Notes: generated by a model not told the origin, from the letters alone. A stretch of 64,000 bases of DNA from an uncultured Gammaproteobacteria bacterium (GCA_902826485.1 CADEEZ010000002.1:18077-82076), one strand, 5' to 3'. Shown: positions 13,910-17,127, counted from the stretch's first letter. Program-made: numbers and translations.

Positions 13910-14878
13910 ATGGATACTATTGAACTGAGGGATTTAAATTCTAATTCCTGTTTCCCTAATATTGATTTAACAAAATTAGCCAAATCACATAAAGAAACTT
14001 TATTTTTTAGCGCATTAGAGAAATGTAACTTAATGGCTATGCAAGAATTAATATATGCAGGGGTATCTTTAGAATGTAGGAAGGATAATAACACCCCTTT
14101 ATCTTTTGCTGTTCAATATAGCGATTTTAAAACAATAAACTTCCTGCTTTTAAATGGCGCAAATCCCGATCCAGATTCTTTTCGTGGCGAAACGCTATTG
14201 GCGCTCGGCTTAGTAAGATGCGATCAAGATATAACGTGTTCTTTATTAAGTTGGATGTCAGATGAAAAAATTAGAAAATATAAAGAGTCATCTGCTCATT
14301 GCGAAATTATTACTCAATTTGAAGCACTTCGCTCAGCTTATCGTGAAAAATTAAATTCCTTTTTCGCTCCCCTTTTTTGTTCTTTAACTAATCTATCCAT
14401 GATTTTGAAAGAAGTTGTGGGGAACATTGAAAATCGTTTTGAATTGTTGGTAAATAAACCAAATGCAATAAATACTACAGATCAAAATTTTGTTGATGTT
14501 ATTTATAAAGAATTTCCTTGCTGGTATATTTCTGTATTAAAAAAAGAGTCAATTCAAATATGCCATCAAATTTATCAAGATTCGCTAAAAACAAAAGAAA
14601 GGATGGATAATTATTTAGCGACACAGTTCGATCGTCTGTGTGATGATTTTGACAAGATGCAAATGGATCTTCAAAATTCAATACCCCCCGTTATTTTCAC
14701 CCCCCTTGCAGGCAATCCGAATCCAAATAAGCGAAAAGCCAATGGGCAAGCATTAGAAGGTGAAAGAGAATTGAAAAGAAATAAAATTAATAATGACGAA
14801 TCTGATGATGTAATGATGGAAGAAGAAACACCACAAAAAATATGTCGATCTCCTTTTTACTTAAGTTCAAATCATTAA
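13910..14878 (+). CDS. Ankyrin-containing paralogue 1 of a three-gene family (ANK, helical module, bipartite NLS-like motif, acidic tail)
   Basis: Shares LLxGAxP, LLSxMSDExIxxYK, IIxQFExxxxAYRExLxSFF and FPxWYxxxLKxxSI blocks with the ORFs at 15064 and 16090. Contains KRKANGQALEGERELKRNK near the C-terminus. Confidence 0.75.
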   Translation: MDTIELRDLNSNSCFPNIDLTKLAKSHKETLFFSALEKCNLMAMQELIYAGVSLECRKDNNTPLSFAVQYSDFKTINFLLLNGANPDPDSFRGETLLALGLVRCDQDITCSLLSWMSDEKIRKYKESSAHCEIITQFEALRSAYREKLNSFFAPLFCSLTNLSMILKEVVGNIENRFELLVNKPNAINTTDQNFVDVIYKEFPCWYISVLKKESIQICHQIYQDSLKTKERMDNYLATQFDRLCDDFDKMQMDLQNSIPPVIFTPLAGNPNPNKRKANGQALEGERELKRNKINNDESDDVMMEEETPQKICRSPFYLSSNH

Positions 14879-14889
14879 GGTAGAAATTT

Positions 14890-14909
14890 GGGCCGGCCTC
14901 TGCCGGCCC
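14890..14909. repeat. GC-rich hairpin (GGGCCGGC-CTCT-GCCGGCCC), a solo arm of the GGCCGGC repeat family; possible terminator or mRNA stabiliser
   Basis: Perfect 8-bp GC stem 12 nt after the stop codon at 14876-14878. The same GGCCGGCCTC.G.GCCGGCC unit forms the arms of the elements at 17184-17273 and 57267-57360. No clear U-tract follows. Confidence 0.6.
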
Positions 14910-15063
14910 GCCTTAGCTCATTTCTTCCCTACTAAATAAAAGTTTATTAACTAAATCTTTTCGGATTATCATTAAATTAATACCCCCGGTCGTTATTAGT
15001 CTTTTAACCAATATGCATTTTTGATATATTCATATCCTTAACTAATAACCAGAGAGCAGTACG

Positions 15064-16065
15064 ATGGATTCTCAACAAAATTCTCAAAACGCCCTATTTT
15101 TTAACTTATCGCAACCAGAAAAAAATCACTGGTTTTTTGAAGCACTACAATCAGGCGATTTAACTACGGCAAAGATGATACAAAATGAGGGCGCGATTTT
15201 AGATACGTCTGATGGAAAGAATACTAATCTTTTGCAAAAAGCGGCCTTGAGTGGCAATTTTGAAATGGTTGATTTCCTGCTTTTGCAAGGAATAAGTCCT
15301 ACGGCCCAGTCGGCTTTTTATCCCCCTGCAATTCAGTGTGCATTTGACTATGGAAACGAAATTATCGTGTTTCGTTTATTAAGTGAAATGTCGCAAGATG
15401 AAATAGCAGAATATAAAAATATTAAACGATGTCAGGATATTGTTTTAGAATTTGAGCAAAATATAGCCTCGTATCGCGAACAGTTAGCCACATTTTATGA
15501 GCAGTATGTTACGAATAACATGTGTATGCCAAATAATAATAATCCTATTGGGAAGATGATTAAATTAATTAATGAAGCTTTTACTTTTAGTAACAATAAC
15601 AATCAAAAGGGTAATAAGGCTGAATTTGACTGGATTGGGGATCTTTCTTATTCCTTTCCTCGTTGGTATCACCCTCGATTAAAAAATGATTCTATTTTAG
15701 CATGTTGTGAAATATACCGATCTAAAATTCGAGCCAAAATGGAAGCTCAAATGGCTGGACCTCAGACAGTTGGTCTAAGAAATTTTATGAATTCAGGCGA
15801 GGAAATTCTGACTGAGACGCCTTCTATGCTTTTTTCCGAGTTTCATAATACAAACTCTAAAACCATCAATAAAAAGCGAAAAATCGAAAATGAGTTGGCG
15901 TTTGACTATGAGCAAGAAAAAGGAAAACATAAAAAAGTTAAAAATAATATAAATTGTAATCATCACAATGATGATAATAACAACAATAATGATAATGACA
16001 GCGATGATGATTGCTCAAACTACGGCATGGATGAAGAACCAAACAAATTCCAATTTAAATTTTAA
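15064..16065 (+). CDS. Ankyrin-containing paralogue 2 (ANK, helical module, bipartite NLS-like motif, Asp/Asn-rich tail ending EPNKFQFKF)
   Basis: Collinear motif blocks with 13910 and 16090. KKRKIENELAFDYEQEKGKHKKVK is followed by NDDNNNNNDNDSDDD and the C-terminal GMDEEPNKFQFKF. Confidence 0.75.
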   Translation: MDSQQNSQNALFFNLSQPEKNHWFFEALQSGDLTTAKMIQNEGAILDTSDGKNTNLLQKAALSGNFEMVDFLLLQGISPTAQSAFYPPAIQCAFDYGNEIIVFRLLSEMSQDEIAEYKNIKRCQDIVLEFEQNIASYREQLATFYEQYVTNNMCMPNNNNPIGKMIKLINEAFTFSNNNNQKGNKAEFDWIGDLSYSFPRWYHPRLKNDSILACCEIYRSKIRAKMEAQMAGPQTVGLRNFMNSGEEILTETPSMLFSEFHNTNSKTINKKRKIENELAFDYEQEKGKHKKVKNNINCNHHNDDNNNNNDNDSDDDCSNYGMDEEPNKFQFKF

Positions 16066-16089
16066 TCAATAATAAGCGAGTAGTCTGTT

Positions 16090-17127
16090 ATGGAATCTTC
16101 AAGCGATTTTCGAAATAATGCTTTTTTTATCTTGTGTCAATCAGATAAAAATGAATATCTTTTTGAGGCAGTTAAATCAGGTGAATTAAACCTAGTTAAA
16201 ATGATGTTAAATGAAGGTGCAGCTTTAGACGCTAATGATGATTACAAGAGAAAGCCATTACATTGCGCAGCAGAATGTGGCCATGCTCATATCGTGAATC
16301 ATCTTCTTTTGTCGGGAGCGGATGTAAACGTACAATCTCTTTTTGGACAAACCGCATTTGAGTTTAGCGTTTTGTCAGGAAATAAAGAAACAGCTTATCG
16401 CTTGTTAAGCGCAATGTCAGATGAGCAAATTACGCACTATAAAAATAAACCAGAATATGTCGATATAATTATTCAATTTGAGCAGCAGGTGATGGCGTAT
16501 CGTCAAGAACTCGCTTCTTTTTTTGAAATATTTATTCTTAACCAATTTTTTATGCCAAATCATCTTGAGGATCCTTTAGCCCATCTATTTAAATTTATTC
16601 GTGAATATTATGACCTAGTGATGAATAAAAAATATACAGAAGATCAAGAAGCGCAAGAGTTGGTTCAAAACATTTGTAATAAATTTCCTCTTTGGTATCT
16701 TCATAGATTAAAATTTGATTCAATATTTGTGTGTGAATCGATTTATAACGCTAAACTCGAAAGAGACGCGGAAGCTGAATTAGCTAGGCAACAAGCGATA
16801 AGAAGGAACCCCTTTCAGAATAGGGAAATGGCGGCGCACATTTGTGCAGCTGTAGTGCCTGCTGTGGGGGCAATTCAGATTGAGCAAAACGCAGTACCTA
16901 TTATTTTTTCTCAGTCCGTTATCACAAATTCTATAATTAAAAATAAAAAGAGAAAAGGTGATAATGAGATAGAGATTGAGCAAGATCAACTTAAAAAATC
17001 AAAAAAGTCATGTGATCAAGGAAATAATTTTAATATAAACTTCGACAATAATAATGATGATGATTCTGATGATGATTTTGACATTGGCATGAATATAGAA
17101 CCAAACAAATTTCAGTTTAAATTTTAA
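16090..17127 (+). CDS. Ankyrin-containing paralogue 3 (ANK, helical module, bipartite NLS-like motif, Asp-rich tail ending EPNKFQFKF)
   Basis: Canonical ANK repeat KRKPLHCAAECGHAHIVNHLLLSGADVN. KKRKGDNEIEIEQDQLKKSKK is followed by NNNDDDSDDDFDIGMNIEPNKFQFKF. It starts 24 nt after the previous paralogue, so the two are probably co-transcribed. Confidence 0.8.
   Translation: MESSSDFRNNAFFILCQSDKNEYLFEAVKSGELNLVKMMLNEGAALDANDDYKRKPLHCAAECGHAHIVNHLLLSGADVNVQSLFGQTAFEFSVLSGNKETAYRLLSAMSDEQITHYKNKPEYVDIIIQFEQQVMAYRQELASFFEIFILNQFFMPNHLEDPLAHLFKFIREYYDLVMNKKYTEDQEAQELVQNICNKFPLWYLHRLKFDSIFVCESIYNAKLERDAEAELARQQAIRRNPFQNREMAAHICAAVVPAVGAIQIEQNAVPIIFSQSVITNSIIKNKKRKGDNEIEIEQDQLKKSKKSCDQGNNFNINFDNNNDDDSDDDFDIGMNIEPNKFQFKF

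Follow-up and report, generated by a model that had tools for sequence, protein, structure and literature searches.

Here we describe three consecutive ankyrin-repeat (ANK) genes in a 64,000-nucleotide stretch of DNA from an uncultured Gammaproteobacteria bacterium (GCA_902826485.1; CADEEZ010000002.1:18077-82076, hereafter the window), together with the helical module that follows the repeats in their products. We propose, with confidence that is evenly balanced, that the three proteins are Dot/Icm-translocated, nucleus-targeted ankyrin effectors carrying a strongly diverged PRANC/F-box-like module. Computed here were the structures of the genes, the extent and distribution of the family, the boundaries and predicted fold of the domains, the presence of a Dot/Icm system and the motif statistics. 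The trio itself is an ordinary tandem expansion; the interest lies in the family to which it belongs and in the module.

The trio is a subclade of a large ankyrin family

The three open reading frames (ORFs; 322, 333 and 345 aa, hereafter genes 1, 2 and 3; Table 1) are intact and lie on the same strand, and their products are collinear from the first methionine to the tail with 60 invariant columns in a MAFFT alignment, as a first-pass annotation of the window had described. Genes 2 and 3 are 26–31% identical to gene 1 and 38–39% identical to each other, and a six-frame search of the genome with gene 3 recovered gene 2 at E=6.9e-54 and gene 1 at E=2.0e-23. All three genes are AT-rich (GC about 0.34), and a gap of 24 nt separates gene 2 from gene 3. 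The post-ANK blocks and the basic motif listed by the annotation were all found at equivalent positions: LLS.MS[DQ][DE].I at aa 112/105/105 in genes 1/2/3, I[IV].[QE]FE......[AS]YR[EQ].L..F[FY] in the alignment of all three, FP.WY...LK..SI..C..IY at aa 202/198/199 and the bipartite motif KRK-x12-16-K[KR]xK at aa 274/271/287. The ankyrin repeats, put at 'two or so', number three by both AlphaFold2 and Pfam. The Pfam Ank_2 model scored 75.9 bits for gene 3 and 31.3 bits for gene 2 (cut-off 27.3); the ankyrin score of gene 1, 22.6 bits, fell under threshold, and gene 1 is collinear with the other two.

A hidden Markov model (HMM) built from the three post-ANK regions of the trio matched many further ANK proteins encoded by the genome. 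The matches fell consistently into two parts, LLsAMSxEqI ... NRnKLFxiF on the N-terminal side and FPxWY on the C-terminal side, and a regular-expression census counted about 27 genome ORFs with [FY]PxW[YF] and, after it, HR[IL]..D[IL]. With a profile of 21 module copies (A3) we detected 41 copies in 36 ORFs of the genome, so that what had been presented as a three-gene family is one branch of a much larger one. The family signature is FPxWYxHR[IL]xxD[LI], of which FPxWYxHR..D is invariant or nearly so in 72 copies, across diverged paralogues and different organisms. Family genes often form tandem arrays (contigs 2, 5, 6, 7 and 26), and some proteins hold two or three ANK+module units. On contig 6 (81930-89110) three neighbouring genes encode proteins of 745, 941 and 522 aa that each hold two or three such units in series and end ...CNRG(A); the serial units indicate internal duplication of the whole ANK-module cassette.

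The MSxExI block had also been noted in the ANK proteins at window positions 6342, 31461 and 32603, and it is present in all three. Of these, the proteins at 6342 and 32603 align with the first ~67 positions of the family profile. The protein at 6342-7271 contains only the first two-thirds of the module; an F-box-like LPPDAMGEILGKY helix replaces FPxWY and is followed by VKVFS and a protein-ending nuclear localization signal (NLS). Judged by this arrangement, the protein may stand between the F-box-like version of the module and the FPxWY version.

Searching 1.84 billion cluster representatives with the A3 profile returned 75 proteins at E<=1e-3 (31 at E<=1e-10), of which about 55 are external to the genome. 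Ten external representatives that we looked up were all unnamed singleton clusters, from Logan, JGI, ENA or NCBI contigs, and external members likewise carry FPxWY and a C-terminal KRK...KKxK. Within the order, represented in the genome collection by 36 species genomes of one family, profile searches gave 38, 9 and 2 matches to the module in the three genomes from the genus of the window and none in the 33 genomes from 11 other genera, which agrees with the earlier suggestion that the module is lineage-specific.

The trio forms a single clade in a maximum-likelihood tree built from 85 module copies, and its nearest relatives are the metagenomic proteins P0126 and P0132. The former shares FPLWY..VC..Y, PIVFS and KRK..KRQKK with the trio and ends ...EEPMQF. 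The two other genomes of the genus contain no close orthologue of the trio's post-ANK region, and the trio module has a 25-residue insertion that is absent from other members. As the trio is monophyletic and lacks a close orthologue in these two genomes, it is, on this phylogenetic reading, a lineage-specific tandem triplication (in-paralogues) within a larger genus-restricted ankyrin family.

A helical domain follows the ankyrin cap

We modelled the gene 3 protein with AlphaFold2 and a 12-sequence family alignment. The model has three ANK helix pairs (residues 17-30/33-41, 56-63/66-74 and 89-95/99-108) with a predicted local distance difference test score (pLDDT) >95. The final repeat has ETAYRLLSA as its outer helix, with LLSAM at the end of it, and DEQITHYK forms a cap helix (111-118; pLDDT also >95). 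A long helix (121-152; pLDDT >95 to about residue 140) is followed by the inserted helix specific to the trio (162-179, modelled at lower confidence), a short helix (186-197) and a further long helix (201-239; pLDDT about 90) that opens right after the FP of FPLWY. Residues 255-345 are disordered (pLDDT <50). A module-only model of a canonical paralogue (pLDDT 86.9; predicted template modelling score 0.73) has the same helix order as gene 3, with two helices of 34-38 residues. In Foldseek searches the full-length gene 3 model gave matches to designed ankyrin repeat proteins (DARPins) and other ANK structures only; its ANK part superposes on DARPins and 3ANK with a root mean square deviation (rmsd) of 0.7-1.4 Å.

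The post-ANK region had been suggested to be an ankyrin C-cap or adaptor module. In the model, ankyrin capping is confined to the first block, that is, the LLSxMS helix and the following short helix, which end the ANK stack much as natural C-caps and those of DARPins do (PDB 2xen). Capping takes up about 15 residues here, and ~100 further conserved helical residues follow that have no counterpart in ankyrin caps. The remaining blocks are thus predicted to form a separate all-helical domain, of about 100-120 residues with the cap element, and the shared blocks are more than terminal capping repeats.

The C-terminal tail and the Dot/Icm system

Beyond the module the order of elements is fixed: P-x-[VIM]-[IL]-F-[ST], 5-20 residues, KRK-x12-16-K[KR]xK, an acidic tract and a short tail. 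The C-terminal KRK...K[KR]xK cassette occurs in 27 ORFs genome-wide, often with xxFS before it, and about half of the 36 module ORFs also carry a bipartite NLS. Measured against the bipartite geometry (K/R)(K/R)-x10-12-K(K/R)x(K/R) in a disordered region, genes 1 and 3 fit with an x12 spacer, and the spacer of gene 2 (x16) is longer. A 3,486-aa ORF on contig 12 (57974-68434) also has a cassette of this kind, KRK...KKLK, followed by a poly-Asn run into an assembly gap.

The first-pass annotation had remarked that type IV secretion signals are usually located in C-terminal acidic tracts and conserved extreme C-termini. Legionella Dot/Icm substrates carry an E-block of 3-6 acidic residues within 6-10, inside the last 25 (PMC3096851). 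Between positions -25 and -7 the trio proteins contain 5, 8 and 8 acidic residues, no 8-residue stretch holding more than 5-6, and by composition their C-termini match this definition. Over the same positions the family averages 4.59 acidic residues versus 2.29 in other ORFs of >=150 aa (Mann–Whitney p=3e-9), and at least four acidic residues in 8 are found in 56% of the family versus 6% of other ORFs. The genome encodes DotH/IcmK (256.8 bits) and two DotA/TraY genes (303 and 265 bits) and therefore has a Dot/Icm type IVB system, so that the suggestion of a secretion signal is consistent with both the secretion machinery and the tails. The two DotA/TraY paralogues are in tandem (contig 13:59912-63834).

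The nonapeptide EPNKFQFKF was reported to end the last two genes. Genes 2 and 3 do indeed close with it, and it occurs in no other of the 4,593 genome ORFs of >=60 aa; gene 1 has an unlike C-terminus, ending …SPFYLSSNH. Extreme C-termini in the family fall into at least four classes (EPNKFQFKF; KKSxxxKK; CaaX-like CTLF/CTIF/CNLF; CNRG), which indicates that EPNKFQFKF is specific to a subfamily rather than the general signal. Over their last eight codons genes 2 and 3 have two synonymous differences, at an overall nucleotide identity of 57%, and the flanking acidic tract is conserved at the protein level only. We therefore rejected very recent gene conversion as a simple source of the identical peptide; synonymous differences despite identity of the nonapeptide favour selection on the peptide, with local conversion as a further possibility.

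Several family or related ANK proteins combine a bipartite NLS with a CaaX-like end (CTLF, CTIF, CNLF, CTIL) or with CNRG/CNKF (contigs 26:2096-3217, 5:36577-37590, 15:26798-27784, 26:414-1274 and 6:80690-89110). An NLS with a CaaX motif is the arrangement of lamins. By analogy, the NLS and CaaX-like ends suggest targeting to the nuclear envelope, and paralogues that have both might dock at the nuclear lamina or on chromatin.

Relationship of the module to PRANC and F-box domains

The module stands directly C-terminal to the ANK repeat array, as in PRANC proteins, and in many paralogues a helix LPxE[IL]..[IL], which reads as the helix-1 signature of an F-box, directly precedes FPxWY. In an hhalign comparison this LPxE helix of the family is paired with helix 1 of the canonical F-boxes encoded by the genome. 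In a six-frame Pfam search for PRANC, the family member C26_13701 (contig 26, 13941-14210) scored 28.6 bits against a curated cut-off of 25.8. Its excised segment scored 25.6 bits over PRANC positions 27-88, and the match ends at LPMDLKKLIVLHLD, just before HPVWY. For the external protein P0131, also of the family, PRANC positions 21-87 are matched (E=0.01) and the register agrees with that of the contig 26 member; its residues 276-292 match F-box positions 2-18, exactly on the helix that leads up to its FPxWY at 292. Among 71 members PRANC was the sole non-ANK Pfam family to recur in more than two members at a sensible location (three members with E<=1), and the best E-value, 6.3e-5, is still significant after correction for 71 proteins. 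These matches are weak and come from divergent members, and their consistent register suggests that the module is probably a much-diverged PRANC/F-box-like domain. On these sequence comparisons we lean slightly towards descent from a PRANC-type domain in which the FPxWYxHR helix arose by remodelling of the helix that follows F-box helix 1.

Other searches placed the family and module outside every library checked (Pfam, NCBIfam, PDB and BFVD), without a structural neighbour. Pfam recognized only ANK repeats in the trio and gave only noise for 21 excised whole modules, with no PRANC match at E<=10 for the excised modules of the trio; among 27 F-box-like segments, likewise noise, one matched F-box-like_2 (E=0.012). 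NCBIfam models of named Legionella Ank effectors matched the ANK region of the trio only, at 14-58 bits versus cut-offs of 450-1400. Searches of PDB sequences with two family profiles (A2 and A3) found nothing under E=0.26, and two matches, of FPRWYLHKI in a Sec7 domain and to A49, were rejected as chance. A word-seeded homology search with gene 3 recovered the ANK part only (<=54% query coverage), a region-restricted homology search with the PRANC-positive paralogue recovered only itself, and a search for canonical PRANC domains across the order found one further, sub-threshold, match. The earlier statement that the module is not a described domain thus stands in that no Pfam or NCBIfam model covers the trio, which is not an annotated effector family in either library; as divergent members weakly match PRANC, the module is probably not wholly new.

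The residues of Orientia Ank12 that nucleate an SCF (SKP1-CUL1-F-box) complex are I453, P454, E456, I461 and D469 (PMC13254291). We compared the family with the F-box pattern [LI]-P-x-E-x4-I-x7-D, with residues at 0, 1, 3, 8 and 16 and the FP of FPxWY at 13-14. This comparison, together with several other observations, weighs against the reading of the trio as effectors with a PRANC/F-box-like module. The three trio proteins agree with the pattern at 0, 0 and 1 of the five nucleating positions, and the position of the essential F-box Asp (16) is Trp in all 72 copies. An hhalign comparison of the family with 13 canonical F-boxes of the same genome aligned 10 columns (LPxEIxxI) with a probability of 2% (P=0.024). 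PRANC similarity is confined to 2-3 of the 71 members, and the trio itself has no PRANC or F-box match at E<=1. Module-only Foldseek searches found no neighbour, with best E-values of 1.9 in PDB and 0.7 in BFVD; the latter includes poxvirus proteins, yet the module matched none of them. Spacers within the NLS, and not a secretion signal, may account for part of the acidic enrichment, and the genome is a 91%-complete draft in 37 contigs.

Judged by these positions, the canonical SKP1-binding determinants, the F-box LPxE...I...D contacts, are eroded in the trio. Given this erosion and the inserted 25-residue helix, the trio module is probably a scaffold or adaptor and not a canonical SKP1 binder.

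Proposed mechanism and alternative explanations

From these results we infer translocation, nuclear import, PRANC ancestry and the existence of host targets, which would fit together as follows. The Dot/Icm coupling complex would recognize the acidic C-terminus and pass the protein into a protist host, where importin-alpha/beta would read the bipartite NLS and bring it into the nucleus. There the three ANK repeats, presumed to be the surface that binds the host target, and the helical module would engage host proteins. Of the helical domain, about 115 residues long, the first element would cap the ANK stack and the rest would form the hallmark of the family, probably acting in the trio as a scaffold or adaptor. 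The disordered tail would carry PxVIFS, the bipartite NLS, the acidic E-block-like tract and a short basic/aromatic end.

More tentatively, the FPxWYxHR module may be an undescribed host-interaction domain that, joined to ANK repeats and the fixed cassette of PxVIFS, bipartite NLS and acidic tract, defines a new and massively expanded class of nucleomodulins in a little-studied Dot/Icm lineage and works by a mechanism other than SKP1 recruitment. We think it unlikely that the module is a functional PRANC/F-box in the trio too, docking on host SKP1-CUL1 while the ANK repeats present nuclear proteins for ubiquitination. Such a role would suit the architecture, with N-terminal ANK repeats and a C-terminal F-box-like element, the single register in which two members match PRANC and the LPxE[IL]..I helix right before FPxWY in many paralogues; moreover, poxviral F-boxes cut to one or two helices still bind Skp1 (PMC4353913), so that SCF recruitment by the trio is conceivable. 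It is opposed by the loss in the trio of the LP, E, hydrophobic and Asp positions (0-1 of 5 retained), by the family-wide invariant Trp in place of the essential Asp, by the want of a Pfam F-box or PRANC match for the trio and by the 2% hhalign probability; nor was there an F-box protein among the module's Foldseek matches.

We find it slightly less likely still that the module is a new helical domain unrelated to F-box or PRANC, its LPxE likeness being convergent, which dimerizes via its two long helices or binds a nuclear host factor. The lack of structural neighbours in PDB or BFVD and of sequence relatives in PDB would be expected on this explanation, as would the >95% of members without a Pfam match outside the ANK repeats and the two modelled helices of 34-38 residues; the most conserved residues (F-P-x-W-Y-x-H-R and D) likewise have no F-box counterpart. 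This explanation does not account for two members that reach or approach the curated PRANC threshold in the same register and the same architecture, nor for a best PRANC E-value that survives the 71-protein correction.

It is improbable that the shared blocks are an elaborate ANK C-cap and a helical spacer, without binding of their own, that hold the ANK repeats off the C-terminal targeting cassette. In favour of this, the last ANK outer helix and a cap helix do make up the first block, and the ANK proteins at 6342 and 32603 share only the first ~67 profile positions. However, the near-invariance of FPxWYxHR..D in 72 copies represents constraint far above the needs of a spacer, and the module has been duplicated two or three times within single proteins along with the ANK blocks. 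Finally, we give very little credence to the proteins being unsecreted, that is, bacterial-internal or decaying paralogues whose NLS-like and acidic tails are by-products of AT-rich composition: the genes are AT-rich, but the ORFs are intact with conserved blocks, the nonapeptide is identical despite two synonymous differences and 57% overall nucleotide identity, the geometry of the NLS cassette is fixed in 27 ORFs, and the ANK, SET, U-box and F-box neighbours together with the Dot/Icm system point to host-directed proteins.

Comparison with known systems

The closest known systems to the proposed Dot/Icm-translocated, PRANC-like effectors are the PRANC ankyrin proteins (PF09372) of Orientia tsutsugamushi (among them Ank1, Ank6 and Ank12), chordopoxviruses, Wolbachia and parasitoid wasps. 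These share with the present family N-terminal ANK repeats followed by a helical intervening region and then a C-terminal F-box-like element, and they too form multi-copy paralogous families, often in tandem; in addition, two members of our family match the PRANC profile itself at positions 21-88. ANK proteins with F-box-like domains are a recurrent means by which poxviruses and Rickettsiales reprogramme host ubiquitination, NF-kB or nuclear functions. Several PRANC/ANK-F-box proteins act in the nucleus (PMC13254291, PMC5957444, PMC4353913). The differences are that the trio and >95% of the family reach no PRANC or F-box score, that the FPxWYxHR[IL]xxD[LI] signature, with Trp for the essential F-box Asp, lies outside PRANC, and that a bipartite NLS and an acidic tail follow the module whereas PRANC is itself C-terminal. 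The lineage also differs, being here a Dot/Icm gammaproteobacterium; a 2026 paper gives Orientia, poxviruses, Wolbachia and the wasp hosts of Wolbachia as the sole known sources of PRANC (PMC13254291).

Legionella effectors such as AnkB, AnkH/LegA3, AnkG/LegA7 and AnkY resemble the trio in being eukaryote-like ANK proteins, with Dot/Icm translocation that is theirs and is predicted here. AnkB of Legionella pneumophila combines ANK repeats, an F-box and a C-terminal CaaX motif, and some paralogues here end in a CaaX-like CTLF, CTIF or CNLF; in AnkB, however, the F-box lies N-terminal to the ANK repeats. None of the named Legionella Ank effectors (NCBIfam NF0430xx) contains the FPxWY module. The ANK nucleomodulins Coxiella AnkG, Anaplasma AnkA and Legionella AnkH are secreted and reach the host nucleus via the host import machinery. 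Beyond the ANK repeats they have no sequence relationship to the trio, and we know of no description of the PxVIFS-KRK-x12-KKxK-acidic cassette for them.

If the proposed relationship is true, the ANK-PRANC-like architecture has a wider phylogenetic range that includes a Dot/Icm gammaproteobacterium, and the natural series from F-box-like to F-box-eroded paralogues could reveal what the part of PRANC outside the F-box does. This family would, in addition, supply a compact collection of candidate nucleomodulins for protist hosts, and the module signature is specific enough for mining metagenomes for effectors of this lineage.

Feature coordinates and genomic context

Table 1. Positions of the three genes, their parts and adjacent palindromes, counted from the first nucleotide of the window
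Feature	Position	Strand	Composition or basis
Gene 1	13910..14878	+	322 aa; 3 degenerate ANK repeats, module aa 112-229, PPVIFT, bipartite NLS, acidic tract
Gene 2	15064..16065	+	333 aa; ANK repeats, module aa 105-225, PSMLFS, bipartite NLS, Asp/Asn tract, EPNKFQFKF
Gene 3	16090..17127	+	345 aa; three ANK repeats aa 17-108, module aa 105-226, PIIFS, bipartite NLS, Asp/Asn tract, EPNKFQFKF
Gene 3 ankyrin stack	16138..16413	+	AlphaFold2; Ank_2 75.9 bits; DARPin matches, rmsd about 1 Å
Gene 3 post-ANK helical module	16402..16767	+	AlphaFold2 and family profile, E=9.8e-25
Gene 1 module core, LLSWMSDEKI to FPCWYISVLKKESIQICHQIY	14243..14575	+	Family profile
Gene 2 module core, LLSEMSQDEI to FPRWYHPRLKNDSILACCEIY	15376..15717	+	Family profile
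Gene 1 bipartite NLS-like motif KRK-x12-KRNK	14729..14785	+	Motif search
Gene 2 bipartite NLS-like motif KRK-x16-KKVK	15874..15942	+	Motif search
Gene 3 bipartite NLS-like motif KRK-x12-KKSKK	16948..17007	+	Motif search
Gene 2 Asp/Asn-rich E-block-like tract and C-terminal EPNKFQFKF	15970..16062	+	
Gene 3 Asp/Asn-rich E-block-like tract and C-terminal EPNKFQFKF	17044..17124	+	
GC-rich palindrome GGGCCGGCCTCTGCCGGCCCG, copy of a genome-wide element like a repetitive extragenic palindrome (REP)	14889..14912	.	Just 3' of gene 1
REP-like palindrome then T-run, terminator-like hairpin	17253..17284	+	3' of gene 3

The source assembly is a 2.54-Mb draft, and the window corresponds to positions 18077-82076 of its contig 2. 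The best SecA match to a named genome is 62% identical. ANK repeats occur in about 100 of roughly 1,900 ORFs of >=150 aa, an extreme ankyrin load for a 2.5-Mb genome. The trio lies within an 18-kb run of eukaryote-like genes, upstream of a mur cluster, whose members include SET+ANK, U-box, ANK and F-box/leucine-rich-repeat genes and a gene for a 981-aa ANK protein. Host contamination was rejected because mur, lpxC and secA genes are on the same contig.

As judged from its sequence, the hairpin after gene 3 would probably end the gene 2-3 transcript. The REP-like GC-rich palindrome (consensus GTAGTGGCCGGCCTCTGTGCCGGCC) has 31 copies in this AT-rich genome, often as inverted pairs about 65 bp apart, and the elements at window positions 14889-14912 and 17245-17284 flank the 3' ends of genes 1 and 3.

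The genome also encodes at least 10 canonical N-terminal F-box proteins with an unusual conserved extension, LQPLYNRLYxxDKTLP, after the F-box. Their loci include contig 1:60589-63253, where three such genes are in tandem, contig 11:11815, contig 15:9698, contig 33:4354 and window positions 9653-10660. The P-x-Y-x-R-L-x-x-D of this extension is a loose echo of FPxWYxHRLxxD.

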